Positions 1 to 26,883 of a DNA stretch of 64,000 bases are shown here, one piece after another. Source of the stretch: Patescibacteria group bacterium (GTDB lineage Bacteria > Patescibacteriota > Patescibacteriia > 2-01-FULL-39-33); NCBI GenBank assembly GCA_041662745.1, contig JBAZRV010000001.1, forward strand, positions 384 to 64,383, read 5' to 3'. Position numbers and translations under genes: made by a program. A model generated the notes under the pieces. It did not search any database, was not told the DNA's origin, and worked only from the letters and a program-made list of their open reading frames with translations. The stretch's first letter is position 1. Each line of letters begins with the position of its first letter.

Positions 1-3000
1 GTTTTCTATAACAATCGGATCGGTAAAATTGTTATGGCCGGGACAAGATCCCTGATTGCCGGTAGTTAATTCTACGCTGGCAATACGGAAATAACCCTTA
101 TCAGAGGGGGCAAACAAAGCGTCTTGATAGGTCCGCCAATCGGTCTCCTTTTGCGCCGTAGAAGTTGCTTTTGACCTGACAAAATCATTAACAATGGAAT
201 AATTGGCCGTTCCCTGGCTCCAAACACCGCTGGCTTGTTCCTCTTCGCGCCAACTCCAATTATAAGTGTCGGCATTAAGAATGATACAAACATTGTCTTC
301 GCTGACAACATCGGATTTGTGTGGCTGTTTCTGACCGTAATATCGGCTGATAAACTTTTGCGGCGAGCAATGCACGCAACCGACGCGACAATATTTGTCA
401 TTATCGCTTTGGCTGCGGGTATGGAAATTCCAACAGAAGGCGGCGTTGGGGAATTTCGCCGGATCATCGCAACCTGACGATTGCAACGCCTGCCCGTCAG
501 CATATAGAGGGAATCCCTCATAACTGATAACTCCGCTGGTAAGCACTATTTTATAATCAGCATCAGCTTCCAGGGACTGGGGCATAAATTCAAAATAATC
601 AAACAAGTCAGGACTGCCAAAATCACGACTGGCATAAGGACTAAAAGAACCGTTAGGCACTACCGCTTGCCACTCCCCGGCGCCATCCTTTTTATAAATT
701 TTCAAGTTCTTCCAACCCGGTGTCACTAAATCTATTCCGGTTAACGATTGCACATTCATGGGTCGATTGAATCTGGCTGAAATGGCGGCATTTAAACAAG
801 CATCGGAATTAGTCACTCCCGGGATAACCGTCGTCCATCTGTCTGATGGCGTCGGCGAAGGCAGGTTATCCTCATCTTTGCAAGTTTGGCTACGGGAACA
901 GTCCACTACGACATAAAACTTCTTCGGTCCCAATTCATGAGTAGCCAAAAACGTCCAAGAATATAATGATAATGAAGCTTGTTGTCCTGTCGGATAACAA
1001 ACTTGATTAGGCAGCGGCTCACAACCGCCCCAATGGCCGTTAGCTTGGCAAATACGCTGCTGTTGGCAGTTACCCAAGGCCGGACAACTCTTTAAATCAA
1101 CTTGGTTGGGCGTACATAATTGGGCCTTTGGTACGCAAGTGCAAGCATCGTGAGCAAGCGAAATCTCATTGATCACTAAATGATCAGTGGAAGACGATTT
1201 TCCAACCGCGTTCTGTTGGCCCACCGAGGAATTAGAAAAATAAATAAAGTCATTAGCCGAACCGGTGTCTAAACCATCAATTTTTCTTCCCCAAGAACCA
1301 GGTGAAAAAGCCACCGTCGAAGAACTGTAAGCAACCACATCGGCAATTTCATCGCTTACCCCCCTAACGAAAGCAATGGTGCCTTGATTTTTGCTAAGCT
1401 TAAAATTATTGCTGGGGTTGAGTGTTGAAGTGCTAATAATAAAATAATCACCGGCCTTCAAAGTAACGCTTTCCGGTATGTAGTAGGTTACGGCACTGTT
1501 ATCATTCAATAAATCATTAATACTCTCCTGTTTGCCGGAATAAATAATACGCCAATTGTCTAAGTTAATATCGGAAATTGTGGGATTATAAATTTCCACC
1601 CATTCCTCGTCTGACCTTACGGTATCGCAACCCAAATCACTGCCGCAATTTTGCGGGTCACAAGTGCCATCATGCCATAAATCAGACAAGCAGCGACGGC
1701 CGGATTGCGGAGCAAGCGAAGCCAAGAATGACCAAGAATACAACCCCAACGAGGCCGGAGTAACACCCAAATAAGAAACGCAATTGGGATCATCTTTAAC
1801 GCAAGCTCCCCAAGTATTATCTACTCGGCAAGTTTTCTTGCCCAGACAACCGCCCAAATCGCAACCGGTAACGGCATTCTGTGTCGGATCGGAGCTATAA
1901 ACACATTCCTGGTCGATTGGTTTTTGGCAAGTACAGTTTTTATCCATATCGCAATCGGAGCGATAAAACCATTTACCGACATCTTCTGTTTTATTACTGC
2001 ACCCCTGGCAAGCCAGATTATTTTTACAATCGTTACTTGAGGCCAAGCAAACCGCAGGATCGTTGCTGACACTTGCACCGCACGGATCACCTTCTGATCC
2101 ATTACCGATATTAAATAAAATCGAATTGCTATAACCATTATTATAAACTCTGACCGCTGATTTTCCGCGTTTATTCTCCGGCACCACATCTTTGGCTGAA
2201 GTGTTAGTCCAGGAGGTGGCGGCAGTGGAAGTTATACCGACTAAATTACTAAAATTGGTACCGGTATCCCTTAAATACCAAATCACTTTTCCCGTGCCAT
2301 CAGCAGCAAAACCGCGACCCGTCAAATCGACGGATGTCGGGAAAAGCCCGCTGGTCGGATCAATTGAGCACAGACCTGGCAATTCAATATTATTAGCCAA
2401 GAACGGCCGAGAATTACTGGTTAGGGGTATTAACGGCTTGGTTTTGTTGACAACTTCAATGTCATAATTGGCCGGCAAATCATTAATTGAATCCAACCCT
2501 GCCGGCACTTCAACTATAATTTTGTTATCCTGCCACGCCGTGGCGCAATCAGCCAACTTAGCTAAAGTAATAACACCATCGCTTTTAGCGATAAACCTGA
2601 CTTCGCCTACGACTTGGCCGAAACCGCTGCCATAAATAGTCAAATAATTGCCGACAGCGCCATAACCGACATCATCAGCCAAAGAATTAATATCATTCAA
2701 ATCACTATCATTGTTAAGATCAAAAGACGGATCAAGCCAGTTAATCGCCGGATCGCCGACACAATAACAATTAGTACCGCAATAATTAGTGCAGTTAGAA
2801 TCAGCGCAGGTTAGATCGTCAGGACGGGTGCAAGAAAAACCTGGGCAGTTCTGGGTACAACCGCCACCGCAATCAACGCCCTGCTCGTCTGCATCCTTAA
2901 AGCCATTAAAACAATGGGCGGGAGAAAATTTAACTTGCACCTTATTAGAATAATAAGATTTATCATTAGCAAAAGACCTTAAAGTGGTGGAAGTTAGGTT

Positions 3001-3846
3001 TTGATATTCAGTTGAAGAAGTATCCCAAGGAAAGGTGGTGGAGGCAGCATTGTATTGCCGGCCATTTATGATAACCGTTTGCGAATTAACATCAGTTGCG
3101 CCAACCTGAACTTCAGTTGAGCCATTCAAATCAAATAAAGATAAATCATTAACCGTATCTTCAGAATTATAAGAATATACCTTTACTTGCAGGGTGGGGC
3201 TTTGGGGAATTTGCACGCTACCGGAAAAACCGATTGAGCATTCGCGACTGCGACGTTGCGGCAACCAATTAGGAAAGGCGGGATCGGAAAACTCACAAAT
3301 TGTCGCTCTCTTTTTGGTAGCATCAAATAAACAATCAACGCCGATACAACTCGGCACACAGGTTGAATCGGTTTGGGCGCAACTGCCCCAAATTTCATCG
3401 TCACCGCAGACTTGCTCTCCACCACAACCGCCGATAGTGCAGGATCTGACATCATCAGGAGTACACGTTTGTCCTTGCGGATTAAACCAATACATTAAGA
3501 AAGTAGTAACGGCAAAAGCGGAAAAAATGATCACTAAACCAATAATGGCATTATAAATGGTTCTCTTAGCCTTATTGACCTTATCTGGATCGCCGCCGGC
3601 CGTCATCCAAGTAAAACCACCATAAATAATCAGCAACACCACGACTACTCCGAGCAAACCGAAAAGTATTTGCAAAATCCGCCCGATAATCATGCCTAAG
3701 CTGGCAGTGCCGAAAACTCCCGACAAGCTTTCCAGTGTCGGAGCAGCCGGCGCCTGCGCCAAAACAAAATTACCAACAGCAAAAACCGCTGCCCAAACAA
3801 GCAGAGACAAAAATATTTTTAATTTTACTTTACGTTTTGAAGGCAT
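1..3846 (-). CDS. Giant secreted/cell-surface protein, N-terminus complete, C-terminus cut by window edge (>1280 aa). Signal peptide + two-helix VirB2/TrbC-like (T4SS-pilin-like) module (motif WMTAGGDPDKVNKAK) + Cys-rich ectodomain with a lamin-tail-like segment (EWVEIYNP...LDNW)
   Basis: Manual minus-strand translation from ATG at 3846 runs without a stop to position 1. Spot-checked blocks at 1-60, 421-540, 1201-1320, 2101-2160, 3001-3060 and 3541-3600 are all in the same frame. The first ~110 aa are a near copy of the N-terminus of the downstream 1105-aa paralog. Not in the ORF track because the stop lies outside the window. Confidence 0.6.
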   Translation of the reverse strand, partial: MPSKRKVKLKIFLSLLVWAAVFAVGNFVLAQAPAAPTLESLSGVFGTASLGMIIGRILQILFGLLGVVVVLLIIYGGFTWMTAGGDPDKVNKAKRTIYNAIIGLVIIFSAFAVTTFLMYWFNPQGQTCTPDDVRSCTIGGCGGEQVCGDDEIWGSCAQTDSTCVPSCIGVDCLFDATKKRATICEFSDPAFPNWLPQRRSRECSIGFSGSVQIPQSPTLQVKVYSYNSEDTVNDLSLFDLNGSTEVQVGATDVNSQTVIINGRQYNAASTTFPWDTSSTEYQNLTSTTLRSFANDKSYYSNKVQVKFSPAHCFNGFKDADEQGVDCGGGCTQNCPGFSCTRPDDLTCADSNCTNYCGTNCYCVGDPAINWLDPSFDLNNDSDLNDINSLADDVGYGAVGNYLTIYGSGFGQVVGEVRFIAKSDGVITLAKLADCATAWQDNKIIVEVPAGLDSINDLPANYDIEVVNKTKPLIPLTSNSRPFLANNIELPGLCSIDPTSGLFPTSVDLTGRGFAADGTGKVIWYLRDTGTNFSNLVGITSTAATSWTNTSAKDVVPENKRGKSAVRVYNNGYSNSILFNIGNGSEGDPCGASVSNDPAVCLASSNDCKNNLACQGCSNKTEDVGKWFYRSDCDMDKNCTCQKPIDQECVYSSDPTQNAVTGCDLGGCLGKKTCRVDNTWGACVKDDPNCVSYLGVTPASLGLYSWSFLASLAPQSGRRCLSDLWHDGTCDPQNCGSDLGCDTVRSDEEWVEIYNPTISDINLDNWRIIYSGKQESINDLLNDNSAVTYYIPESVTLKAGDYFIISTSTLNPSNNFKLSKNQGTIAFVRGVSDEIADVVAYSSSTVAFSPGSWGRKIDGLDTGSANDFIYFSNSSVGQQNAVGKSSSTDHLVINEISLAHDACTCVPKAQLCTPNQVDLKSCPALGNCQQQRICQANGHWGGCEPLPNQVCYPTGQQASLSLYSWTFLATHELGPKKFYVVVDCSRSQTCKDEDNLPSPTPSDRWTTVIPGVTNSDACLNAAISARFNRPMNVQSLTGIDLVTPGWKNLKIYKKDGAGEWQAVVPNGSFSPYASRDFGSPDLFDYFEFMPQSLEADADYKIVLTSGVISYEGFPLYADGQALQSSGCDDPAKFPNAAFCWNFHTRSQSDNDKYCRVGCVHCSPQKFISRYYGQKQPHKSDVVSEDNVCIILNADTYNWSWREEEQASGVWSQGTANYSIVNDFVRSKATSTAQKETDWRTYQDALFAPSDKGYFRIASVELTTGNQGSCPGHNNFTDPIVIEN

Positions 3847-7321: not shown

Positions 7322-7777
7322 CTATTTGCTTATTTCTTCCTTAACAATCTTACTCACCATAGTGCCGTCGGCGGCGCCCTTAGCGGCGGCCATGACCAAT
7401 CCCATAATCTTGCCAAAACCGGCCATACCCAAGTTACCCTGCTCAGCCATAATCTTAACCACCAGTTCCCTAACCTGTTCTTCGGTCATTTGTTCCGGTA
7501 AAAACTTAGAGATTAAATCAATTTCCGCCTGTTCTTTAGCTGCCAGCTCTTCACGGTTGGCCTGCCTATAAGAAGCAATGGAATCCTGGCGTTTCTTCAC
7601 TTCTGACTTTAAAACCGCCAAAACATCTTCATCGGAAAGCAACTCTTCCTTAGGCATCAGTTTTTCTATCTTTTTATTGGCGATAGCGGACTTAAGCAAA
7701 CGCAAGGTGGAAACAGCGGCTTCGTCTTTGGCCTTGTAGGCAATCATGAACGCTTCGCTAATTTGTTGATCTAACAT
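7322..7777 (-). CDS. GatB/YqeY domain protein
   Basis: 151 aa, Ala/Glu/Lys-rich helical protein with GatB_YqeY-like pattern (…LKSAIANKKIEK…EELAAKEQAEIDLISKFLP…). Confidence 0.7.
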   Translation of the reverse strand: MLDQQISEAFMIAYKAKDEAAVSTLRLLKSAIANKKIEKLMPKEELLSDEDVLAVLKSEVKKRQDSIASYRQANREELAAKEQAEIDLISKFLPEQMTEEQVRELVVKIMAEQGNLGMAGFGKIMGLVMAAAKGAADGTMVSKIVKEEISK

Positions 7778-8275: not shown

Positions 8276-9781
8276 TTAATAATCATCTCCGCCAGAATCT
8301 GGCGCACTCTCTTCAACAATAGCTTCTGCCGGTTCGTCCATCGCGTTTAAATCATTCTCCGCTTCTCTTTCGCCATAATCATGTTTGAAACGCTTATGGG
8401 ATAAAGCGGCCTTGGTTTCTTCCGTGTCTATTACCGCTACTCCCTCATCACTGTTATATCTCTCCAGCCGCTTAGTCAATTCAGTTTCAATCTTATTAAA
8501 ATCAACAATCTCTTGCACGCCGCCATTCATATCACGAAACATGATTGTGCCGTCACTGACTTCTTTCTGCCCCAAAATCAAACAATATTTAACTTTTAAT
8601 CTGCCGGCCTGCTCCAGTTGCGCCTTCAAACCGTCCTTATAAAAAGCTTGGGACAATTTGAATTTATGACGCAATGCCTCGTATAAAACAATGGCTTTTT
8701 TCTTAGCGCTTTCGCCTAACTGGGCGATAAACACGTCGGGCTGGTAAGGTTCAGCCACATCCGGATTTTTTTCCCGCAATTTTGCTATTACGCGATCCAT
8801 ACCGATAGACAAGCCGCAAGCCGGAGTATTCTCTCGTCCGCCCATTAATTCTATCAAACCGTCATAACGCCCGCCACCCCCCAAGGCATTTTTACCGTCC
8901 GGATCATCAACCGACCAATATTCAAAAATCGTTCGATTGTAATAATCCAAACCGCGTACAATCCAAGGATTGAGAACGTAGGGCAAATCAAGCTCGTCCA
9001 AATACTCCAAAACTTTCATGAAATGTTTTTTGCATTCGTCATCCAAATAATCTAAAATTTGAGGCACGCCAGCCCTAAGTTCTTGGCAACCGGGATCTTT
9101 GCAATCAAGCAACCGCAAGGGATTCTTGGTTAAACGCGCTTCGCAACTCTCACATAAATTCTTGGCGTGCTGACGATAGTATTTTACCAAAGCCTTTTTA
9201 TACTCTTCACGGCAAGCGGGACAGCCGATGGAATTAACTTGAATAGTCGCTTCTATGCCTAAATCATTAAGCAGATTATAGCCCATCAAAATCAGTTGGG
9301 AATCCAAAGCCGGACCATCTTCTCCGATTGCCTCATAACCGGCCTGATAAAACTGACGGAAACGTCCTGATTGCGGTTTCTCATGGCGAAACATCGGACC
9401 GTAATAAAAAAACTTTACCGGTTGAGGTTGATTCAATAAGCCATGTTGGATAAAAGCGCGCGCCACACTGGCCGTACCTTCTGGACGCAATACCAAATTG
9501 TCTCCGCCCTGATCAATAAAGGAAAACATTTCCTTTTCTACGATATCGGTCTGCTTGCCAATACCCCTGGCAAAAACGTCGGTGTACTCTAAAATCGGCG
9601 TTTCAATTTTGCCATAACCGTAATCGTTGGCGATTTTAGTGGCAACATTCTCCGCTAATTGCCAATATTTTTGATCCTGCGGCAAAACATCACGCATGCC
9701 GGTAACCGTGATAAATTCACGACCCCGTTTTTTTCTGGGTTTATCAACTGATTCTTTATCTGTTTTTTTAATTCTGGACAT
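8276..9781 (-). CDS. hisS: Histidyl-tRNA synthetase with internal Zn-ribbon insertion and acidic C-terminal tail
   Basis: Class II HisRS motifs (RGMRDVLP, LRPEGTASVARA, GGGGRYDGL). Insert CPACREEYKK…CESCEARL…CKDPGC. Acidic tail …DEPAEAIVEESAPDSGGDDY. Confidence 0.9.
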   Translation of the reverse strand: MSRIKKTDKESVDKPRKKRGREFITVTGMRDVLPQDQKYWQLAENVATKIANDYGYGKIETPILEYTDVFARGIGKQTDIVEKEMFSFIDQGGDNLVLRPEGTASVARAFIQHGLLNQPQPVKFFYYGPMFRHEKPQSGRFRQFYQAGYEAIGEDGPALDSQLILMGYNLLNDLGIEATIQVNSIGCPACREEYKKALVKYYRQHAKNLCESCEARLTKNPLRLLDCKDPGCQELRAGVPQILDYLDDECKKHFMKVLEYLDELDLPYVLNPWIVRGLDYYNRTIFEYWSVDDPDGKNALGGGGRYDGLIELMGGRENTPACGLSIGMDRVIAKLREKNPDVAEPYQPDVFIAQLGESAKKKAIVLYEALRHKFKLSQAFYKDGLKAQLEQAGRLKVKYCLILGQKEVSDGTIMFRDMNGGVQEIVDFNKIETELTKRLERYNSDEGVAVIDTEETKAALSHKRFKHDYGEREAENDLNAMDEPAEAIVEESAPDSGGDDY

Positions 9782-9830: not shown

Positions 9831-10430
9831 CTACTTATACTCTGGCGTGCTAAAAACGGTAAAACGGCTAAAAGGCCAACCACGAATCCAGGTTCGGCCG
9901 ACAATCAAATCTTTCTTAACTAATCCAAAAATGCGAGAATCCAACGATTGTCCGCGATTGTCGCCCAACAGAAAGTATTCATCTTCGGCTAAAGTAACCT
10001 CGCCATAACCGCGCACCGGCAAAACCGTCTCTGTCCCTGCCAATAAATAAGATTCTTCTAATTTATTACCGTTAATATACACGGCATTGTCTTGAATTTT
10101 TACTTTGTCGCCGGGCAAACCGATAACGCGTTTAATGAAATACTGCTTAGTGTCTTTGGGATATTTGAAAACAACGATATCACCGCGTTGCGGTTCATTG
10201 AACCGGTAGCTTATTTCATCAATAATTAGGTACTCATGGTCATAAAAATTCGGTTCCATGGATGCTCCTTTGACATAGAAAGGTTGAATTAAAAAATACC
10301 TGACCGGTAAAATAATGGCCAAAGAAATAATGGCCACCCTGACCATTTCCCAAATAAATTCGGAAATCGCCTGCCATCGAGAACGATTGAGATTAAAGCC
10401 GTCAGAAATCTGATAATTATCCATAAACAC
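9831..10430 (-). CDS. lepB: Signal peptidase I
   Basis: N-terminal TM, catalytic GASMEPNF and GDNRGQSLDSR boxes. Confidence 0.85.
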   Translation of the reverse strand: MFMDNYQISDGFNLNRSRWQAISEFIWEMVRVAIISLAIILPVRYFLIQPFYVKGASMEPNFYDHEYLIIDEISYRFNEPQRGDIVVFKYPKDTKQYFIKRVIGLPGDKVKIQDNAVYINGNKLEESYLLAGTETVLPVRGYGEVTLAEDEYFLLGDNRGQSLDSRIFGLVKKDLIVGRTWIRGWPFSRFTVFSTPEYK

Positions 10431-10689: not shown

Positions 10690-12333
10690 ATGTCTGACCC
10701 TATCAGAGTCAATTTCATCAATGATCCAATAATTCAAGAAAAACCGGCCATTACTGTCAAACAGCAAAAATCGCCAGACCCAGAAACAGCCGGACCAGCC
10801 GTGTCTGCTCCACGCAGGCGGCATTTTAGTTTTAAAAAGTTAATTATCAGCTTAACCATAGCAATAATTATAGTTTTTATTGTTTTTTCATCTTCTATCG
10901 CCTTCTCTAACGAGAATTTAATCAAAAACTTATCTCAATTCAATTGGCTGAGTCAAGTCGGCAGTTTAATCACTTCTGCCGATCGTGAACTCAAAGGTGA
11001 AGGCGAGGATCGCATTAATTTCGTTATTATGGGGATCGGCGGGGGCGACCATGAAGGAGCGGAACTGGCAGACACGATTATCCTGGCCAGTTATAAACCG
11101 TCCACCAAACAAATCGCCCTAATGTCTATCCCTCGGGATCTGTACGTCAAAAGTCCGGGGTATGGCTGGGTGAAAATCAACGGCATCCGTGCCATTGCCG
11201 ATAAAAAGAAAGCCGGCAGCGGCGATGAAGCAATGCGACAAACTCTTTCCGATTTACTGGACATTGATATCCAATATTACGCCACGGTTGATTTTGACGG
11301 CTTTGAAAAACTGATCGATGACTTTGGCGGCGTCGATGTGGATGTAGAGCGTGATCTCATAGATTATTCTTATCCTATTCGCGGTCGGGAAGATTCCTAT
11401 CCGATCGAAAGCCGCTATGAAAAATTAATCATAAAAAAGGGCCAACAACATATGGATGGCGCTTTAGCCCTTAAATACGCCCGCAGCCGCCACGCCTTGG
11501 GTACGGAAGGATCTGATTTTGCCCGTTCCAAACGCCAGCAAAAGATTCTTTTGGCCCTGAAGGACAAGATTCTGGCGCCGGGCACCTTCTTTAACCCGCA
11601 AAAAATCAACGGTCTGCTGGAAATGTATAACGAAAACGTCCATACCAACCTTCAAGTTTGGGAAATCATGCGTCTGTTACAATTCGGCCGGGATATTGAT
11701 TTTAACCAAGGCATTATCACTTATAGCCTGGTTGATGGAACTGAACAATTTTTATACGATCAGATGGTCAGCGGCGCTTACGTGCTTTTGCCTTACGGCG
11801 GCAACTACGACAAAATAAAATTCATTTGGCAGAACATTTATCTGCCGGAAATCGGCAAGGACTTGCTGATTGATAAAACCAAATGGGCCGAATTCAAGGA
11901 TGCAACTTCCACCAAGGCCACTACCACCTCGTCAACTGCCGCTACCATAAAAACCAACAACACGACCGACGACTCCGCGACCAAACCCATTGCCGCGCCG
12001 ACGGAAACCGCTAAACTCTACCCCAATGATCCGACAACCCAAGGTGAATCAACCTATCAAAAAGAACAGGCGCGCATTGAAATATTAAACGGCACCATGA
12101 TCACCGGCTGGGCCGGACAAGAAGCTGGCAAGCTCAAAGCCAAAGGATTTAATGTGATAAACAGCGGCAATGCCGCCACCAAAGGGTATGCTTCAATAAA
12201 AATTTATGATTTAAGCGGCGGCAGATATCAGCTAACCACTTCAGAGTTGCAAATTATCTATGGCGTAGAAGCCATTGCCCCGCCGGCCGGCTTAAAATCA
12301 TCAGCTGATATTGTTATAATTTTAGGCAAATAA
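10690..12333 (+). CDS. LytR-CpsA-Psr (LCP) family cell-envelope phosphotransferase with C-terminal LytR_C-like domain
   Basis: N-terminal TM; LCP core FVIMGIGGGD…ADTIILASYKP…LMSIPRDLYV; Thr/Ser-rich linker; C-terminal LytR_C-like segment. Confidence 0.8.
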   Translation: MSDPIRVNFINDPIIQEKPAITVKQQKSPDPETAGPAVSAPRRRHFSFKKLIISLTIAIIIVFIVFSSSIAFSNENLIKNLSQFNWLSQVGSLITSADRELKGEGEDRINFVIMGIGGGDHEGAELADTIILASYKPSTKQIALMSIPRDLYVKSPGYGWVKINGIRAIADKKKAGSGDEAMRQTLSDLLDIDIQYYATVDFDGFEKLIDDFGGVDVDVERDLIDYSYPIRGREDSYPIESRYEKLIIKKGQQHMDGALALKYARSRHALGTEGSDFARSKRQQKILLALKDKILAPGTFFNPQKINGLLEMYNENVHTNLQVWEIMRLLQFGRDIDFNQGIITYSLVDGTEQFLYDQMVSGAYVLLPYGGNYDKIKFIWQNIYLPEIGKDLLIDKTKWAEFKDATSTKATTTSSTAATIKTNNTTDDSATKPIAAPTETAKLYPNDPTTQGESTYQKEQARIEILNGTMITGWAGQEAGKLKAKGFNVINSGNAATKGYASIKIYDLSGGRYQLTTSELQIIYGVEAIAPPAGLKSSADIVIILGK

Positions 12334-13257: not shown

Positions 13258-14046
13258 CTATCTTCTTTTATGATGCTTATGAGACGGCATTTTAGGCAAT
13301 GCTTGCGACCCCAACCAGGCTAATTCAAACAAGGAAACGAAAGTTTCGTAAATATTTTTATCCTCAATAATCACGCCGTTTAATTTATCCTTCAGCGAGG
13401 CAATCCGGACCTTATTATCAAAAAAAGCGATATCGCAATTAATCGGGAATCTATCAGCCGAAATTCTTAATCGTTCATCAAGCGGACTGGGATGAGCGCG
13501 ATCCTCGCCTTCCTTTAAAGTAAATATGGCTTTAGTTTTTGTTTTGCTGGCTACTCGATCTTGGTAAGCTTTATTGACTTCTTCTGCCGAGTACACTTTG
13601 CGCAAATCATCCAACGAGAAAAAGGCGCGGATAAGCTGTGATTTGGAAGACATCTGCTCTTGCACCATCGTTCGCAAGCCTTCTTTGCCTTCAAAAAACC
13701 TAACCACCGGCTTATTCTCCTGCTTATTGTAAATCGCTCGCAATTGCGGCATCAAATCATTAATCATTTTTTGCTTTTCTTCTATCTCTGCCTTTTCTAA
13801 TTCCAGCGCGCTAATAATCATTTCCGGCGATTCGGCAATGTAGCGGACTTTTTTATCTTTGCCGGCATAAGTGCTGCATAAGCCTTTTTTGATCAAAGAA
13901 TCCAAAATCACATAAGTGGTCGGCCGATTAACGCCGGCTTTTTTGGAAATATCCTGCACTGAAGCTTGGCCCAATTCCAAAGTAGCCAAATAAACTTTGG
14001 CTTCTTTGTCGGATAAACCGATTTTTTTCAATTCATTTATAAACAT
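13258..14046 (-). CDS. TrmB-family transcriptional regulator
   Basis: N-terminal wHTH LSDKEAKVYLATLELGQASVQDISKKAGVNRPTTYVILDSLIKKGL typical of TrmB regulators. Confidence 0.7.
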   Translation of the reverse strand: MFINELKKIGLSDKEAKVYLATLELGQASVQDISKKAGVNRPTTYVILDSLIKKGLCSTYAGKDKKVRYIAESPEMIISALELEKAEIEEKQKMINDLMPQLRAIYNKQENKPVVRFFEGKEGLRTMVQEQMSSKSQLIRAFFSLDDLRKVYSAEEVNKAYQDRVASKTKTKAIFTLKEGEDRAHPSPLDERLRISADRFPINCDIAFFDNKVRIASLKDKLNGVIIEDKNIYETFVSLFELAWLGSQALPKMPSHKHHKRR

Positions 14047-14100
14047 ATCTAGTATAATTAATGTCTATATTATTTTAGCTTAAATTCATTTTTTAAAAAA

Positions 14101-14460
14101 GAGGGGGCGCTTCCGAACTCGTCGGAGCGCCCCTTAGGTACCATTAATGTTCTTGTCTACTGACTGCTAGCCGGTTCTTATTATTGCCCCGGTAGGCAGT
14201 CATCGCACAGTCTTTTTTGACTTTTTTGACCCTTTTTGCGAGTCTTGAGCCTTCAGAGATTCAATCATTGTTTAGATCAACCGAGTCCGCCCATAGCTAA
14301 GCTACTCCTTTCTGATTCAGTGGTGTAACGGTTAGATAGCGATCACTCCAAGCCCCGACGCGCGCCAGATCCAGATTTGAACCGGAATCATGGCGCAGAG
14401 GGTGGGTGGAGTTATCCGCTACCCATAACCATCTCCTTTCTGCGGTTGTGGCTATTGCCG
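14101..14460. other. ORF-free, hairpin-rich intergenic segment; possible small structured RNA of unknown class
   Basis: No ORF ≥60 aa. 11-bp GC hairpin GGGGCGCTCCGacgagtTCGGAAGCGCCCC at 14101-14134. Minus strand carries a canonical tRNA T-arm-like element TCCGG-TTCAAAT-CTGGA (about 14375-14395) without a complete tRNA cloverleaf. Confidence 0.2.
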
Positions 14461-14461
14461 A

Positions 14462-14689
14462 TTACTTCTTGTTAAACGCCGCCTTCATCATAAAAACAAC
14501 CACCGCCACCACCAGTCCGAGCTGAATCGCCTGCATCGCCAATGGCCCCAATTCAGCAAAGAGTTGATTACAGGCATCAGCCAAGACTCCTGGAAACAAA
14601 CGGACAAACACCAGCGAAGTGCCAATACCTGCCAATGTTCCCAGAAACCGTTGCGGCGTGCCAAAGAAAAAACGCAAATAGCTATTCAT
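14462..14689 (-). CDS. Small hydrophobic membrane protein (75 aa)
   Basis: Internal Met of the 108-aa track ORF; start overlaps the stop of the upstream 59-aa gene (gaaTAAaATGaat). Confidence 0.4.
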   Translation of the reverse strand: MNSYLRFFFGTPQRFLGTLAGIGTSLVFVRLFPGVLADACNQLFAELGPLAMQAIQLGLVVAVVVFMMKAAFNKK

Positions 14690-14690
14690 T

Positions 14691-14870
14691 TTATTCCCCC
14701 CGTTGCTTTTCCACCGCGCGTTTGTCGCGTTGGCGGTCGTATCCCTTCTTGCCCAGTTTACTGCCATGGACACCGCCGGTTTTGACAATCGTCGGCCCGC
14801 GCTGTTTCAAAAGCAACTCCATCGGTTTAATAACCCCAACTAAAATAGTTCCTTTTTTGCTGTGACTCAT
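14691..14870 (-). CDS. Small basic protein (59 aa)
   Basis: Not in the ORF track (below length cutoff). Preceded by SD GGAGAGAATT-ATG. Lys/Arg/Gly-rich: MSHSKKGTILVGVIKPMELLLKQRGPTIVKTGGVHGSKLGKKGYDRQRDKRAVEKQRGE. Confidence 0.4.
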   Translation of the reverse strand: MSHSKKGTILVGVIKPMELLLKQRGPTIVKTGGVHGSKLGKKGYDRQRDKRAVEKQRGE

Positions 14871-15145
14871 AATTCTCTCCTTTTAAAGTTCTTTAGCTTC
14901 TAGTCAGCCCTATACTGACTTTTAGCTTGATATATCAGTATATCACATAGTATAAATTTTGTCAACAGCAATTAACAAAAACTTATCCACAGCCCCTATT
15001 TAAAACCAAGAAAAAACGAATGATTAACAGCTTAAAAGTGTTTTTGATACGATTATGTCAGCTTTAACTGACATAATTATAATAGAATATTTTATCTAAA
15101 TTTAGATAAAATATTAATAAAAAAATAAATTATTTATAATAACCA

Positions 15146-15174
15146 TTGACAAAATAATTTTAGTGTGATACAAT
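15146..15174 (+). promoter_or_regulatory. Near-consensus sigma70-type promoter (TTGACA-17-TGTGATACAAT, extended -10) pointing into the ORF-poor region
   Basis: ttgaca(15146-51) + 17 nt + tacaat(15169-74), TG at -15/-14; AT-rich UP-like sequence upstream. Confidence 0.45.
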
Positions 15175-16039
15175 GATTTATCAACCTGGTGAAACCAATG
15201 TCAAAACTTTCCGACAAGGAACAAAACCCAGGGTGATAGATTGAACTAAAATTGACAATCAAACAACCTCAAAATCCGTTGATAACCCGATTAAACTGAT
15301 TAAAAACGGATTAAGTTCTGCCAAATTAGACTGGATTTTCCAGTTTAATCGGCTTAACTGGAGGCTAGCAAGCTTGCTCCTAAATGAGCTTCTGCCCCGT
15401 TTCTTGCAAACGGGGTGAAATAAAGCCTACTATCTCCGGCTGTCGGAAAGATTTATTTGATATGGGTCCCCGAATATTTTTGCTTCGACCTAACGGTCTT
15501 AACGCAAAAATTTCGAGGATGACATTGACGGATAATCAGCTAAATAAAACTTGTCGTGCTAAGAACCTTAAATAATAATATTACTGACGCGTCTGTGCCG
15601 AATTGCCTTTCATAAATTATGAAAAATAATTCGGTGCAGATGCGCGCAGGCATCCGAGCACTACCTTAGAAAAGCTGGCCATCCAAATACGACACCTGAT
15701 CAGGTCGTTGAGGGAAACTCGGCAGTAAGGTAACACAGCCATATAGGGCTGTTCTAAACTTCCGTCATTTCATCGTCATGGCGATGGATGTGATGCGGAA
15801 GGACACCTCCTCATTACCACAGCGGTAAAAGACCGCTGGAGGAGCTGAATGGATGCCTGGTAAGCATCCGGATTATCCTGAACAGGCTAAGGGGGCAAGC
15901 AGATCCGCCAAGAAGGTGGAGCGGCTGATGGCAAAGCTTAAGCTTGCATCCCATAAAACGCCTAATGTTCAAGATAATCCACTGCGCAAGAATAGTTTCT
16001 TAAGGGACGAGAAGAGATGTATTACGGCTTTAGCTGAGT

Positions 16040-16400
16040 AGGATGGAAAAAACCATCGCAAAAAGCAGCCGATCTCTGATCGTGCCCGAGGTTCCTCCGG
16101 CAACCGTAATGGCGGTTGCATGAGAGAAGTCCGACCGATCGGGCTTCAAAGCTATAGGTCGAGGCAGCGGCCATAATAGTAAAAAGACGGGGAGATGACA
16201 GCTGAAAATGCTGTTTCTTGACCCCGCCTGCGATGAAAACCTCATCGCCACGTGGAACTACGCCGAGATCGTAGGAAGCGCTCACGGCTAATGTGAGATG
16301 GGTGTGAGGACACCAAGGAGGCTGGCTAACAGCAACCACTGCACGGTTTTTCTGGTGATTTTTACAGTCGGGAAAAATCACCGTTCCACTTTAGCGAATA
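16040..16400 (+). ncRNA. Candidate structured RNA with partial RNase P RNA-like motifs (tentative)
   Basis: GAGAGAAGUCCGACC…CUAUAGG (cf. CR-I GGAAAGUCCGG…CAUAGG). GGCUAAUGUGAGAUGGGUG + hairpin GGUGUgaggACACC + GGCUGGCUAACAG (cf. E. coli GGUAAGGGUGAAAGGGUGCGG…GGCUGGUAACAG, the P13/P14 region). Many short hairpins. The 3' part is much shorter than in canonical type A, so the assignment is weak. Confidence 0.25.
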
Positions 16401-16419
16401 AATTATTTGTTCACTAAAG
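16389..16419 (+). promoter_or_regulatory. 31-bp imperfect palindrome CTTTAGCGAATAAAT-T-ATTTGTTCACTAAAG (copy 1), operator-like or 5'-UTR hairpin upstream of a small-gene operon
   Basis: Half-sites match 13/15; conserved block 16386-16432 recurs at 17232-17278 (about 85% identity), 30-40 nt upstream of the start codon in both cases. Confidence 0.45.
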
Positions 16420-16460
16420 CGGACATTAAAAAACCCAATAACCACAGGGAGGATACAATC

Positions 16461-16892
16461 ATGGAAAATCAAGCAACTGGCTTGGTTAATGACCAACTTC
16501 GCTCCCAACTGGTAATATTAGTCAAACACGGGATTATGCCTCAGCCCAAACCGCTAAAAAATATGGTGCGGGCCAGAAGGATTAATTTTGAAGAAGATGG
16601 TGCTAGCAATTTTGGTTATTCTGAAATTGTGCTCTGCGTTAATGGCCGAGCTCATTTGAAGGTCAGTCATAGCTGGTTGGAAAATGGCGACCATGATGAA
16701 ACTAACAATTCAGCAACGGTAACTCGTTGCGATTGCCATAACTACCATGATCTGCTGATTAACGCAGAACATGCGGATTTGATCGAAAAATTTCTGCAAA
16801 CTGATGAAGACCAAAAATTAGAACAAACATTTGCACCATTTACATTTCCGTGTGACTATTTACAAAACCAACAACCAGGAGATTTATCATGA
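16461..16892 (+). CDS. Hypothetical protein (144 aa)
   Basis: Start at internal Met with SD GGGAGGA; GC-richer than flanks; ATGA overlap with the next gene. Confidence 0.5.
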   Translation: MENQATGLVNDQLRSQLVILVKHGIMPQPKPLKNMVRARRINFEEDGASNFGYSEIVLCVNGRAHLKVSHSWLENGDHDETNNSATVTRCDCHNYHDLLINAEHADLIEKFLQTDEDQKLEQTFAPFTFPCDYLQNQQPGDLS

Positions 16893-17182
16893 GCGATACG
16901 AGACAGAAGTGCCAGTTGTGCGGTGGTTTGGGTATGAATGGGGCCAAGTGGCTGGTTAAGACGAACGACGGCAAATCCGTCCAGGTGCATAAGCCCTGCG
17001 GCGAAAAGCTGATCGAATCGGCACCAGCTGAGGTAGGCGCTAAACTCGTCCCGAGTCCCGAGCTGAAAGCCGAATGGACCGCCAAGCGGACCGAACGACA
17101 AGCCAGGGACTTTTGGGCGAGCCGATGCCCGCAACTACTTGAGATCAAGAAAGATCTTGAGCAAAAGGAGAACACGACATGA
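16889..17182 (+). CDS. Hypothetical protein (97 aa) with CxxC…C motif
   Basis: Translationally coupled to the upstream ORF; ~55% GC. Confidence 0.5.
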   Translation: MSDTRQKCQLCGGLGMNGAKWLVKTNDGKSVQVHKPCGEKLIESAPAEVGAKLVPSPELKAEWTAKRTERQARDFWASRCPQLLEIKKDLEQKENTT

Positions 17183-17234
17183 CCTAGCACCCTTACAGGT
17201 TTTGATGATTTACCCTTAAAAAATCATCAGCCCA

Positions 17235-17265
17235 CTTGAGTGAATAAATTATTTGTTCATTAAAG
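17235..17265 (+). promoter_or_regulatory. Second copy of the 31-bp palindromic element (CTTGAGTGAATAAATTATTTGTTCATTAAAG)
   Basis: Conserved block 17232-17278 matches 16386-16432; lies about 35 nt upstream of the 17300 ATG and is followed by SD AGAGGGA. Confidence 0.45.
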
Positions 17266-17299
17266 CGGACGTTACTAAACATCAAAAAGAGGGATAACC

Positions 17300-17506
17300 A
17301 TGAATGATGAAGACAAACTTCGCCGACACCAAATTCGACAACTCAGTCAGGCCAAAGACCATGCCAAACGTCGGCAAATAGGTCGGAAAAGACAAGCCGG
17401 TACCGAAGACCTGACCAAAAACCAATTTGAGAAAAAATTTCCGCACCTATCAATCAAAGTTTGGTATGCCCAGCGCTGCTTTGTTGGCAAGGGTTACGAT
17501 TGGTAA
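17300..17506 (+). CDS. Hypothetical small basic protein (68 aa)
   Basis: ORF with SD; Arg/Lys-rich. Confidence 0.45.
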   Translation: MNDEDKLRRHQIRQLSQAKDHAKRRQIGRKRQAGTEDLTKNQFEKKFPHLSIKVWYAQRCFVGKGYDW

Positions 17507-17527
17507 AAAATGTAACTTTTTAAATTA

Positions 17528-17560
17528 AAAAGACGAGGCGTCAAAACCTCGTCTTTTATA
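17528..17560. terminator. Bidirectional rho-independent terminator
   Basis: AGACGAGG-cgtcaaaa-CCTCGTCT flanked by A-run and T-run; sits between convergent genes (17300 + and leuS -). Confidence 0.7.
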
Positions 17561-17575
17561 ATTGAATAATTAAAA

Positions 17576-20494
17576 TCAAACCACAATACTGACCAACTTG
17601 CCTTTAATAAAAATAACTTTCTTGGGCTCGCCAGTCAAATATCTTTTAACGTTTGCATCATTAAGCGCCGCGGCCTTGGCTGTCTCCTCCGTTACATCCG
17701 TCGGTAAAACCAATTTTGCTCTAATTTTGCCATTAACCTGCACTGGAATTTCCTTTTCAGCATCAACGACTTTAGCCGGATCATACTCTGGCCATTTTTC
17801 TTTAAAAATACTAGTTTCGTGCCCGAGCTGATACCATAATTCTTCACACATATGTGGAGCAAAAGGAGATAAGATAATTAGAAACGATTTTTTGATAAAT
17901 TCTAAAGAAGCCTCATCTATTTTTTGTTTATCTACTTTTTTTTCTACTTCATTTTTCCCTGTATTCCAAAAATTTATCAAAATCATAAATTGAGAAATCG
18001 CGGTATTAAACTTCATTTCTTCTATATCTTCCCCAGCTTTCTTTATTATCCTATGCATTTCTCTAATCATCCAACCTTCATTAGGTGATATCTTATTCCA
18101 CCAATCTTTATCCTGATAAAATTCCCAAACCTTATTCAAAAACCGATGCACGCCCAAAATATTTTTTGTACTCCAGGGTTTCATATCTTCCAAGGGGCCC
18201 ATAAACATTTCATACATGCGGAAAGTGTCGGCGCCATATTCTTTCAGGATGTCATCGGGATTAACCACATTGCCGCGAGACTTAGACATCTTCTCTCCAT
18301 CCTCTCCCAAAATCAAACCCTGATTAACCAGCTTGGCAAACGGCTCCTCAAACGGCACTGCTTCAATATCAAATAGAACCATATTCCAGAACCGAGCATA
18401 AAGCAAATGCAAAACCGCATGCTCAGCACCGCCCAAATACAAATCAACCGGCAACCAATACTTCAATTTTTCTTGATCGGCGAAAGCTTTGTCATTGTGC
18501 GAATCAATATATCTTAACCAATACCAAGAAGAACCGGCCCATTGGGGCATAGTGTTGGTTTCGCGCTTAGCCGGACCGCCGCAGGTAGGGCAAGTCGTAT
18601 TAACCCACTCGTCAATGGTCGCGAGCGGCGACTCGCCCGTTCCGGTCGGTTCGTATTTTTCTACTTCCGGCAAAGTCAAAGGCAAGTCTTTTTCCTCAAG
18701 CGGCACAATACCGCATTTCTCGCAGTGAACTAACGGAATCGGCTCGCCCCAATAGCGTTGGCGCGAAAATACCCAGTCGCGCAATTTATAATTAATCGCT
18801 TTCTGTCCGCAGCCCTTCTCTTCCAGCCAATCAGTCATCTTACCAATTGCTTTGGCCGGCGCCAAACCATTTAAAAATTCAGAATTAACCATCAAGCCAT
18901 TATCAACATCGGTATAGGCGATATCGCCTTTTTTAATCCGCTCCAACCAAATATCCATTTCGGCATGAACCATAAAATCCAAAGTCAGCTCGTCCGGATT
19001 CTTCCATAAAATCTCATTCTGAGCTTCCTTTTCCTCGTCAGAAATATCCACCTGTTCCTCATCAATTAAATCAAACTCTACTAAGTTGGTATAAGAAACA
19101 CGATTAACATCTTTGTGATTAGCAAAATATTCGGCTCGCACCTGTCCGCCCAAAATCTTGCCATTAGCAAGATTCTTATAACCGGTTTCTTCCAGAACTT
19201 CCCGCTTGGCCGCTGCCAGTAAATCCTCATCTTGGCCAACACCGCCCATCGGAAAAGTAACCCAGTTATATTTGTGGGAATGCAAGCATAAGATTTTTCC
19301 GGTTTTAGGATTTCTAACCACTACTTGGACGTTATGCCTCTCAATTTTTTCCTTGCCAACGACCGGTGGGTTCCTTTTATCGATCCTCTCCGGAATAATC
19401 ACTTCAATAATGGGCAAATCAAACTTCTTGGCAAACTCGAAATCCCGCTCATCATGCGCCGGCACCGCCATAATCGCGCCCGTGCCATAGGTCGCCAAAA
19501 CATAATCGGAAATCCAGATAGGAATTTCAGTATTATTGACGGGATTAATCGCCTTAATGCCTTTTAATTCAACGCCGGTTTTGTCTTTATTCAATTCTGT
19601 CCTTTCCAAATCTGATTTATTTTTAGCAGTTACAATATAATCTTCAACTTCAGGAAAGTTACTGATTTTATCTTTCAATTCTTGAACCAATTTATGCTCC
19701 GGCGCCAAAACCATATAAGTCGCGCCGAATAAAGTGTCGGGGCGCGTAGTATAAACCCTGATTTTTTCATCACTATCGGCAATCTTAAAATCAACTTCCG
19801 CTCCCTCGCTTCGGCCGATCCAATTTCTCTGCAAAGTTTTGATTGATTCCGGCCAAGCCAGTTTTTCAACTCCCTCTAACAATCTATCGGCATAAGCGGT
19901 AATCTTTAACATCCATTGGCGCATATCGCGGCGCTCCACTGCCGTACCGCAACGATCGCATTTGCCGTCTTTGACTTCTTCATTAGCTAAACCGGTCTTG
20001 CAAGACGGACAGAAATTTATCGGTATGGTGGCTTCATAAGCCAAGCCCTTTTTAAATAATTGCAAAAAAATCCACTGCGTCCATTTGTAATATTTCGGGT
20101 CAGTCGTATCCACTTCCCTGTCCCAATCATAGGAGAATCCCAGTGATTGGATTTGGCGTTTGAAAGTAGCGATATTGGCCTCGGTCGTAATTCGCGGATG
20201 CGTGCCGGTTTTAATGGCATAATTTTCGGCCGGCAAACCAAAGGCGTCCCAACCCATGGGGTGTAAGACATTAAAACCCTTGAGACGCAAATAACGGGAA
20301 TAAATGTCAGTTGCCGTATAGCCTTCCGGATGACCGACATGGAGTCCGGCTCCTGACGGATAAGGGAACATATCCAAAACATACTTTTTAGGCTTGACAC
20401 TAAAATCTTCGGCCTGATCAATTTTGGTGTTCAACCACTTGTCTTGCCATTTTTTTTCTCCGCCCGAAATGATGAATTCTTTGTATGAAGCCAT
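17576..20494 (-). CDS. leuS: Leucyl-tRNA synthetase carrying a ~135-aa Nudix hydrolase insertion inside the CP1 editing domain
   Basis: HVGHPEGY (HIGH) and KMSKS present; editing motif [13 protein letters not shown]. After …FDLPII comes an extra segment with a canonical Nudix box [23 protein letters not shown] (residues ~385-480, coordinates ~19000-19340) before the normal …NSEFLNGL…[12 protein letters not shown]. Confidence 0.9.
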
Positions 20495-26232: not shown

Positions 26233-26697
26233 TTATTCCTCCTGCTTAATATATCGCCCCGTAGGATAGCCATCGGCTTGATATTCCTTAACATACCCGG
26301 GCTTCAACCGGTGGTCAATCCAAATGCCGTAAACACGTTGGTTATGCGAATAGCTCGTATGAGTCACCTCCAACTTCCAATCAATCAAATCAAACCAGGG
26401 TTTTTCCAATTCAAAACAATCCACTACACTTAAAATATTCCAAACCTCAAAAGTACCAATTCCCTCAACCACACTATAGGTATGGCTGTAGTTCCAATCC
26501 AATGGAATCCACGAATGACTGCCAATGGTGATTGTTTCCCCAATGGAATCAACGATTGACCTAGAAGCAACGACTGACCGCTGTTGTTCCTCTGCTTGCT
26601 TCGGATCCTGCGAGCACGAGGCGCCCACGACCATAACAACAATAATGAACCAAGCCACGCCGGTCGCTAAAGCCAAATTTTTCCAATTTTCGTTCAT
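26233..26697 (-). CDS. Putative lipoprotein (154 aa)
   Basis: Signal peptide + lipobox-like VVGASC; mature part rich in W/Y. Confidence 0.5.
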   Translation of the reverse strand: MNENWKNLALATGVAWFIIVVMVVGASCSQDPKQAEEQQRSVVASRSIVDSIGETITIGSHSWIPLDWNYSHTYSVVEGIGTFEVWNILSVVDCFELEKPWFDLIDWKLEVTHTSYSHNQRVYGIWIDHRLKPGYVKEYQADGYPTGRYIKQEE

Positions 26698-26883
26698 TGT
26701 AAAGTCCTCCTTCGGCCATTACAGCCGAATTCAACTCGGGCTGATTCCCGAATTAATATATAATTATAGCAAATTTAAACAATTTTGTCAATACCTTTAT
26801 CCACAACTGACATTTATCTAAATTTAAACAAAAAAATCGCCCAACCGCTAAAGCCGGACGATTTTTTAAAATTTAAATTCTGT

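Follow-up and report, generated by a model that had tools for sequence, protein, structure and literature searches.

Between a gene for a 59-residue protein and a gene for a 143-residue protein, a Patescibacteria group bacterium carries 1.3 kb of sequence in which no gene is evident, and the question is what this sequence is for. The locus lies in a 64,000-nt stretch of contig JBAZRV010000001.1 (assembly GCA_041662745.1), which was analysed as a whole and is referred to as the window. The gene-free stretch is a conserved, heavily folded non-coding RNA region that heads an operon of small genes and has no match among known RNA families. At positions 15180–16440, the structure is that of RNA from the transcribed strand and is composite; the region is not coding sequence, not RNase P RNA, and not a chance cluster of hairpins. 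A first-pass annotation of the same DNA had proposed a large or composite non-coding RNA locus, and this proposal is supported by the conservation of the region, the covariation of its helices, its folding statistics, and the lack of any coding frame kept in relatives.

Folding and conservation of the gene-free region

The analysis is based on related loci, designated by L numbers. Locus L005 was the single useful relative from a LeuRS synteny search over 80 species, and its LeuRS is 80% identical to that of the window. Loci L086–L092 were found via the 97-residue protein encoded at 16889–17182, which contains a CxxC...HxxC (CCHC) site. A metagenome scan with the pattern of the RNA 5′ end provided only two new homologues, L101 and L116, and loci L121–L130 were drawn from 112 proteins matched by a profile of the 97-residue family. 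Several of the relative contigs are short. Pattern scans of viral contigs gave chance matches only (L085, located in GC-rich coding sequence, and L118–L120).

The segment 15180–16460 contains only short, mechanically called open reading frames (ORFs). The tblastn comparison with nine related loci gave matches of 10–47 residues located on conserved nucleotide blocks, whereas the flanking genes, with E-values of 1e-16 to 1e-58 in the same search, are conserved as proteins. The first-pass statement that there is no convincing ORF before position 16461 is thus upheld. A 62-codon ORF at 15853–16041 has only MPGKHP in common with L088, and its frame is lost after six codons despite the conservation of the DNA.

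In sliding windows of 300 nt, the folding z-score is −5 to −8 over positions 14800–16500 and approximately zero inside the LeuRS and TrmB-type genes. None of 100–200 dinucleotide shuffles was as stable as domain A, domain C-D, or domain E/G together with the first copy of the F element (z-scores in Table 1). The plus strand folds better in 8 of the 11 non-coding segments, and the G.U and U.G wobble pairs lie on the plus strand, whereas the other strand would have A.C mismatches. The covariance model of the F element, R1, which was itself built from the plus strand, scores 80–92 bits on that strand and 22–32 bits on the minus strand.

The five short hairpins that had first drawn attention to the region are all present. 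The hairpins CCGAATT/AATTCGG, CTACG/CGTAG, and GGTGATTTTT/AAAAATCACC are kept in relatives via compensatory changes. In the hairpin CTCAC/GTGAG, a single side is altered, giving a U.G wobble; GCGATG/CATCGC is present in the window and was not traced in any relative. In the homologous regions, compensatory changes preserve the helices of domains A, C-D, and E and of the F element.

The first-pass annotation had also described the block as GC-richer than the flanking DNA and as an acquired element, and neither description is supported. The GC content is 45.8% at 15181–16460 and 44.9% at 15181–17570, compared with a window mean of 45.1%, and only positions 15586–16345 are GC-high (85th–97th percentile). 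In addition to having average GC content, the locus occupies the same place, between the TrmB-type regulator and LeuRS, in relatives with 80% LeuRS identity. The internal modules and genes are shuffled between relatives, and the chromosomal place is constant.

No family of Rfam 15 was detected in the full 64 kb at gathering scores, and at E ≤ 10 positions 14700–17700 matched only a spurious microRNA hairpin and a fragment of a long non-coding RNA. Seven close homologous loci gave only spurious matches to microRNAs or small nucleolar RNAs; at the homologous positions of seven distant loci, the only relevant matches were hammerheads in L127, along with tRNAs in L124. The candidates named in the first-pass annotation, including RNase P RNA, tmRNA, 6S RNA, group I and II introns, GOLLD, ROOL, HEARO, and OLE, had no match to their Rfam models, and neither did the covariance models of signal recognition particle (SRP) RNA and raiA. 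ARAGORN found neither tRNA nor tmRNA. Riboswitch and T-box models did not match positions 14700–17700 or the seven homologous loci, and no ligand class can be assigned. The models of the self-cleaving ribozymes twister, twister-sister, pistol, hatchet, HDV-like, hairpin, and glmS had no match in the window and seven relatives. The hammerhead model RF00008 gave no match in the window at E ≤ 10, and no CUGANGA was read in 15180–17570. BLAST of the region against a phage collection gave no match, and our literature search found no paper on structured non-coding RNAs, integrons, or hammerheads in Patescibacteria.

Domains of the region and the inter-cistronic F element

The region is preceded by a sigma-70-type promoter, and a tract of 24% GC lies before it. 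The AT-rich tract and the TTGACA-17 promoter were recognised in the first-pass annotation, and both stand: the promoter has nearly all consensus positions (Table 1), and the block cTATTGACAAA...TGATAyAnTGAT is kept in eight loci, as well as in the distant L127 and L130. We infer that transcription starts at approximately 15180 (AUCAACCU...).

Domain A is located at the 5′ end and is common to nearly all relatives. Its closing helix, P2, is formed by AAUGUCAA-AA-CUUUCCGACA, which pairs with UGUCGGAAAG...UUGAUAU. The minimum-free-energy folds of seven homologues have the same closing helix, and the hairpins enclosed by it are completely different in sequence. P2 is altered from CAA/UUG to CAG/CUG in L087, and a C-G pair is replaced by G-C in L088. 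In the distant L127, CUUUCCG:CGGAAAG is replaced by CUUCUUG:CAAGAAG, which amounts to three consecutive double changes in a register chosen by hand. In all loci, the first inner hairpin has a first strand complementary to the 5′ end AUCAACCU, and therefore an alternative pairing is possible. Domain A is probably the regulatory or protein-binding part of the region, since it is universal in the family and adjoins the promoter. Obvious candidates for its partners are the CCHC protein and the regulator of TrmB type. A putative terminator at 15435–15447 was dropped, as its U-run is absent in relatives and its sequence is the 3′ strand of helix P2.

Domain C-D has a 23-bp hairpin (15589–15645) that contains several G.U pairs. 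The closing helix of the domain, GCGCAG (15644–49) with CUGCGC (15982–87), spans 340 nt, and the helix GGCAUCC (15649–55) with GGAUGCC (15851–57) spans 200 nt. RNAalifold analysis of five loci predicted these elements and gave 68 pairs, of which 19 are changed on both sides; for example, the 200-nt-span helix of L086 is GGCGUCC:GGGCGCC. Within the domain, the pairings s1:s2 and s3:s4 compete with s2:s3, and the four segments all change together in L086. The sequence GGAGGAG in domain D is sequestered by CUCCUC. Six nucleotides after GGAGGAG there is a mini-ORF, AUG-GAU-GCC-UGG-UAA (15850–15864), within the conserved hairpin GGAUGCC-UGGUAA-GCAUCC. L088 retains the mini-ORF, and so does L086, with a GUG start. 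It may encode a tiny leader peptide, or its overlap with the RNA structure may be fortuitous.

Domain E/G is the segment that holds strings resembling RNase P RNA, and it is 76% identical to L101. In L101, CUACG/CGUAG of domain E is replaced by CCAUG/CAUGG, which corresponds to two compensatory pairs, and CUCAC/GUGAG by CUCAC/GUGGG. The G part, the last 60 nt of the domain, resembles a module in L088, L089, L090, and L101. C-D and E/G are lineage-specific structured inserts that the loci swap in the manner of cassettes.

Ten related metagenomic loci show the region to be a mosaic. Individual modules are found, missing, or in another order in L005, L086–L092, L101, L116, and L130. Locus L005 has domains A and C-D, followed by a different 240-nt unit, and is without the 143-residue gene. 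In L086, there is a second C-type unit, and a mini-gene with a T2SSF domain is inserted inside the C hairpin. Loci L087 and L088 contain another 450-nt non-coding unit before a CxxC mini-gene, far from the promoter (L087 2590–3010, L088 2270–2700), and L088 has a gene for a 71-residue membrane protein at about the place that part of domain E occupies in the window. In L089, the promoter is followed by the F element within ~190 nt, and domains C-D and E/G are missing. Locus L130 has a 1.4-kb leader (2400–3800) composed of pieces common to L086 and L090. Typical units open with ...CUGCRCC and close with CCACUGCRC. The non-coding heads of L130 (2400–3800) and L090 (1–910) are even larger than that of the window and contain other module types, common piecewise to L086 and L090/L092.

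The F element consists of GGUUU, hairpin 1, CCACU, hairpin 2, AAGCGGAC, an A-rich tract, and a ribosome-binding site. Downstream of the first copy come an A-rich tract, GGGAGG as the ribosome-binding site, and the ATG at 16461. The R1 search identified only two copies in the window, before two of the three small genes of the operon. In the relatives, F precedes most small genes, with 19 copies among the ten closest sources searched. In the other 79 species of the LeuRS synteny set, the F-element model found nothing. Among 13 copies, 96.8% of cells are paired, six pairs are changed on both sides, and the covariation was matched by none of 500 shuffles. Pair 50-71 is G.U in eight, A-U in four, and G-C in one of the 13 copies, and pair 55-66 is C-G in seven and U.G in five copies; the wobbles at these pairs are tolerable only on the plus strand.

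In the distant L124, L127, and L129, a two-hairpin element of quite different sequence is located before genes. Locus L127 lies on a 578-kb Patescibacteria contig and has an array of more than 12 small ORFs. Model RF00008 matches it at 8343–8397, 9160–9214, 9944–9998, 10810–10864, and 11595–11649 with 36–46 bits (E 5e-7 to 3e-4). Four of the five matches are in inter-genic gaps, and one is inside a called gene. Two further copies with a long stem II were identified by eye at 7560–7645 and 9510–9590. The hammerheads read in detail lie 30–40 nt past a stop codon, directly behind a homologue of hairpin 1. This is the position taken by hairpin 2 at the other junctions of L127 and in the family of the window.

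Interpretation of the region

We consider it probable, at roughly 60%, that positions 15180–16440 are the composite structured leader or non-coding RNA of a polycistronic transcript, in which the F elements are probably the sites of cleavage. Transcription would start at the operator-flanked sigma-70 promoter (15146–15174) and produce a single transcript of ~2.4 kb, from ~15180 to ~17570. The transcript would span the three small genes (143, 97, and 68 residues) and probably end at the hairpin 17513–17572. The F element would be an inter-cistronic processing module equivalent to the hammerheads, because the distant L127 has type III hammerheads exactly at the position of hairpin 2. The cut would fall in hairpin 2, and hairpin 1 would be left to protect the 3′ end of the RNA upstream. 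If the F elements are processing modules, the 1.2-kb head may be released as a free structured RNA that would end at ~16383. Homologous recombination between the F copies, which are ~80% identical, can account for the shuffled modules. As this is sufficient, no site-specific mechanism has to be assumed, and the window ORFs scanned contained no recombinase.

Several points weigh against this interpretation. The transcript, its ends, and any cleavage are what we infer from the sequence. The folding z-score of the minus strand is nearly as low as that of the plus strand, so that energy alone does not fix the strand. Most of the homologues are close relatives from a narrow clade, and the covariation counts thus rest on few independent events. 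The register of P2 in L127 was picked by hand, and the scores of the L127 hammerheads fall just below the RF00008 gathering score of 48.5. With only ~12–16 imperfect base pairs, hairpin 2 falls short of a classical RNase III site, and neither an intrinsic terminator nor a known ribozyme was found within the window locus.

A close parallel is provided by hammerhead-punctuated polycistronic transcripts of prophages and mobile elements. In long prophage transcripts, multiple hammerheads flank genes; they cleave in vitro, and it has been concluded that they divide the transcript into mRNAs of gene length (Perreault et al. 2011, PMC3088659). Like these, the present loci have small, mostly unannotated genes in a long array on one strand, with compact structured RNA elements at the junctions, and L127 has type III hammerheads at several junctions. 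The logic proposed here, of a long transcript cut into gene-length pieces, is also the same. In contrast to the prophage transcripts, the window and its close relatives have a two-hairpin element instead of a known ribozyme, the window locus is chromosomal, syntenic, and without prophage genes, and its 1.2-kb non-coding head has no counterpart there.

The best-placed alternative, which we regard as considerably less likely, is that the region is a purely cis-acting leader that is not released; it would sense a signal or bind a regulator, such as the CCHC protein, and control elongation or translation. A leader of this kind agrees with the position of the family-wide domain A directly after the promoter and with the sequestration of GGAGGAG in domain D. 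It also agrees with the mutually exclusive pairings, namely those of the 5′ end with the first inner hairpin and those of segments s1–s4 in C-D. It is harder to reconcile with a length of 1.2 kb, far above that of known bacterial leaders, and with the dispensability of C-D and E/G, which are missing in L089. The same kinds of modules occur between genes far from the promoter in L087 and L088, and no riboswitch or T-box model matches.

A bolder proposal, which we put forward tentatively and hold to be rather unlikely, treats the modules as new stand-alone classes of structured RNA, 290–450 nt long and closed by long-range helices. They would travel as RNA cassettes in a Patescibacteria-wide array, usually beside a TrmB-type regulator. 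F would then be an unrecognised self-cleaving ribozyme or the site of a dedicated nuclease, at the position of the hammerheads in other family members.

The region itself is similar to GOLLD, ROOL, OLE, HEARO, and raiA in having hundreds of nucleotides of conserved multi-domain structure with long-range helices and no coding capacity; those RNAs were likewise found by comparative analysis, and their functions are unknown or were recently defined. It differs from them in matching none of their covariance models and in being a mosaic of separable modules that vary between close relatives within the leader of an operon.

It is improbable that the structures act at the DNA level, with the repeated F elements and the C hairpins serving as recombination sites in an integron-like cassette array or as single-stranded hairpins of a transfer leading region or a replication origin, and with RNA folding as a by-product. 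The gene and module content between F elements does vary by locus in a cassette-like manner, and the units share the recurrent starts and ends given above; however, no integrase or recombinase was found by Pfam among 30 window ORFs scanned or among the genes called in related loci, and the attC cores GTTRRRY/RYYYAAC were not seen by eye at unit boundaries. Recombination between F copies is enough for the shuffling, and the locus is fixed at one chromosomal position. The DnaA-box consensus and AT-rich tract upstream, and the T4SS-pilin genes nearby in the window and in L130, could fit replication or transfer, but a GC-skew switch is lacking, and the promoter directed into the region is a canonical double-strand one and is conserved. 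Low z-scores on both strands would be expected of DNA hairpins; the wobbles, consistently G.U on the plus strand, would be A.C mismatches on the other. Integron arrays and CALINs, which are attC clusters lacking an integrase, resemble the locus in their one head promoter, their same-strand, small, promoter-less, mostly orphan genes with imperfect-palindrome repeats between them, and their content, which varies between strains. In the window, by contrast, the repeats sit in 5′ untranslated regions with a ribosome-binding site, their pairing favours the sense RNA strand, and long non-coding modules are found among the units.

Decay of coding sequence into pseudogenised cassettes without RNA function is very improbable. 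The locus does gain and lose genes, as illustrated by the L088 membrane-protein gene at part of domain E, but the region folds 5–9 standard deviations past dinucleotide shuffles, compensatory substitutions maintain helices in several modules, and there is no frame-consistent protein similarity to any cassette gene.

The first-pass suggestion of a reduced or atypical RNase P RNA, which may be extended to other universal RNAs (tmRNA, 6S RNA, SRP RNA), can practically be discarded, since no RNase P model matched in the window or 14 homologous loci, and the segment concerned is lineage-specific and dispensable. Its basis was the strings AGAAGUCCG (~16126) and GGCUAAUGUGAG (~16287), which are short resemblances to conserved RNase P segments. 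The likeness to bacterial RNase P RNA (RF00010/RF00011) is limited to the size range of the 3′ third and these two strings of 7–12 nt, and the conserved-region set is lacking. The 64-kb window has no rnpB match elsewhere, which is uninformative for the whole genome. The RNase P, tmRNA, 6S, and SRP models had no score even at E ≤ 10 in 14700–17700 and at E ≤ 5 in seven homologous loci, in agreement with the ARAGORN result for tmRNA. The string-carrying segment 16040–16345 aligns only to L101; it is replaced in L005, missing in L086, and reduced to the G part beside the 71-residue gene in L088. The minimal relative L089 has no such insert at all, a finding incompatible with an essential RNA.

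Control sites, genes, and the wider locus family

Table 1. Features of the locus, in window coordinates.
Feature	Position	Strand	Details
TrmB-family transcription regulator	13258–14046	−	Pfam PF01978, E 2.7e-15
59-residue basic protein	14691–14870	−	contains ...GKKGYDRQRDKR...; upstream of the 15146–15174 promoter
Divergent promoter of the 59-residue gene	14937–14991, including box	−	TTGACA-17-TATACT with TG
TTATCCACA box	14983–14991		DnaA-box consensus; invariant; kept in 7 loci
Candidate operator, palindrome ATGTCA-N8-TGACAT	15055–15074		inverted repeat
Candidate operator, perfect 30-nt palindrome	15086–15115		inverted repeat; includes TTTAAATTTAGATAAA
Sigma-70-type promoter	15146–15174	+	TTGACA-17-TG-n-TACAAT; 11/12 consensus matches, extended −10 TG
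Domain A, conserved 5′ domain	15180–15470	+	z = −5.46; ~290 nt; closing helix P2 15197–15216 : 15441–15463
Motif CUUGUCGUGC, end of 5′ leader	15550–15559	+	in window, L005, L086, L087, L088, L090, L101, L116, L127
Domain C-D	15586–15990	+	z = −8.81; ~400 nt; ends in CCACUGCGC
Domain E/G	15991–16345	+	z = −7.97 with F copy 1; ~350 nt; lineage-specific; ends in CCACUGCAC
F element, copy 1	16346–16430	+	R1 86 bits; hairpin 1 16354–16382, hairpin 2 16386–16422
143-residue gene	16461–16892	+	homologues in L086, L087, L090 (tblastn)
97-residue protein	16889–17182	+	invariant CxxC...HxxC site (CCHC, zinc-site); hallmark gene of the locus family
F element, copy 2	17196–17276	+	R1 85.5 bits; between 97- and 68-residue genes; includes 62-nt direct repeat
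68-residue gene, last cistron	17300–17506	+	tblastn E 1e-19 to 1e-21 in L005, L086, L116
Hairpin with 26-nt arms	17513–17572		inverted repeat I1; between convergent 68-residue gene and LeuRS

The divergent promoter, the TTATCCACA box, the palindrome TGTCA-N10-TGACA (TGTCA..TGAC core), the sequence TTTAAATTTAGATAAA, which in the window belongs to the perfect 30-nt palindrome, and the main promoter are invariant or nearly so in eight loci. There are only two perfect TTATCCACA boxes in the whole window. The second, at 26797, belongs to a site (26753–26833) with the same control architecture before a 154-residue gene (26233–26697), comprising a minus-strand TTGACA/TATAAT promoter and the palindrome TTTATCTAAATTTA. 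The two sites may represent a regulon-wide set of operators. An interpretation of the upstream region as oriC was dropped, as there is no GC-skew switch and the locus has a single DnaA box.

A second conserved, structured non-coding stretch (z = −5.5) is located on the minus strand at 14095–14465, between a 75-residue gene and the TrmB-type gene. Its end is formed by a clear minus-strand terminator, GGGGCGCUCCG...CGGAAGCGCCCC followed by a U-run, and it holds two CAGAAAGGAG repeats and a T-loop-like GGUUCAAAUCUGG. The stretch is kept in L005, L101, L116, and L130, and partly in L127. Rfam in E-value mode on 13950–14750 gave no match to it.

The locus is embedded among housekeeping genes for HisRS, LeuRS, UvrA, and subunits of pyruvate:ferredoxin oxidoreductase, and an identical locus is present on four metagenomic contigs. 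The LeuRS (17576–20494, minus strand) contains a NUDIX hydrolase domain (PF00293) inserted between its tRNA-synt_1 segments, and the same arrangement is found in L005 and the P0015 contig. T-box control of LeuRS was considered and dropped, since the LeuRS gene is convergent and no model matched. The Pfam scan of ~30 window ORFs revealed no integrase, recombinase, or phage gene, and reverse transcriptase, IscB, and TnpB were absent among the neighbouring ORFs scanned. The TrmB-family regulator adjoins the locus in the close relatives L005, L101, and L116.

Homologues of the 59-residue gene in L005, L086, L087, L101, and L116 are ordinary plus-strand members of the array, and therefore a cassette-type gene has switched side and orientation in the window. 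The 143-residue protein, which NCBI lists as hypothetical, matched nothing but itself in a word-index search, and the end of its gene overlaps the start of the 97-residue gene. The AlphaFold2 model of the 97-residue protein is confident (pLDDT 87), and a fold search of the PDB with it gave nothing reaching E < 0.4. The hairpin after the 68-residue gene is a putative terminator and the probable end of the transcription unit. The small proteins of the window had no significant match in Pfam, PHROGs, and PADLOC. Among the genes of the relatives, the only annotations were a precomputed T2SSF (PF00482, L086 1039–1335) and one weak PHROG of unknown function.

The wider family comprises 112 homologues of the CCHC protein, some of them from organisms named Paceibacterota or Kaiserbacteria. 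A TrmB-type regulator adjoins the CCHC gene in four of the five more distant locus groups and was not seen in L129. In L124–126, L127–128, and L130, the CCHC gene is near a TrmB-family regulator, across 0.9–1.7 kb without genes; in L130, the CCHC gene is 2.5 kb away from the regulator itself. All the distant groups have a same-strand array of small genes, and those of L124–126, L127–128, and L130 are without a Pfam match.

In L129, which is labelled Kaiserbacteria, a Ro60/TROVE (Rsr-like) gene (1186–2763) is directly followed by the CCHC homologue (2854–3135) and a Bro-N-domain gene. This adjacency hints that the CCHC protein family deals with structured RNA. The Y-RNA model had no match in L129. 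A Y RNA/Ro60 system was rejected for the window, as there is no TROVE gene at its locus and TROVE is next to a CCHC homologue only in L129.

Two loci encode proteins of ~100 residues that consist of a single T2SSF domain of the PilC/GspF platform type (L086 1039–1335, L087 1101–1430). The array of L130 is followed by five T4SS-pilin genes. Episymbionts of this kind are thought to depend on type IV pilus machines, and the T2SSF mini-proteins could interfere with such machines.

To our knowledge, few large bacterial RNAs exist beyond the universal set. Patescibacteria genomes are very small, and 1.2–1.4 kb of conserved, gene-free, folded sequence is therefore a notable investment. Defined by its protein, the locus type is represented in the phylum at least 112 times. 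Besides a conserved leader domain and a conserved zinc-site protein, it comprises small genes that change rapidly, in most loci a dedicated regulator, and inter-cistronic RNA elements that recur; in at least one lineage, hammerhead ribozymes take the place of these elements. Even if the region were only a long leader, it would be an unusual one. The family provides a concrete, testable case of RNA processing inside operons of uncultured episymbionts and is worth searching for new ribozymes or RNA-protein systems.

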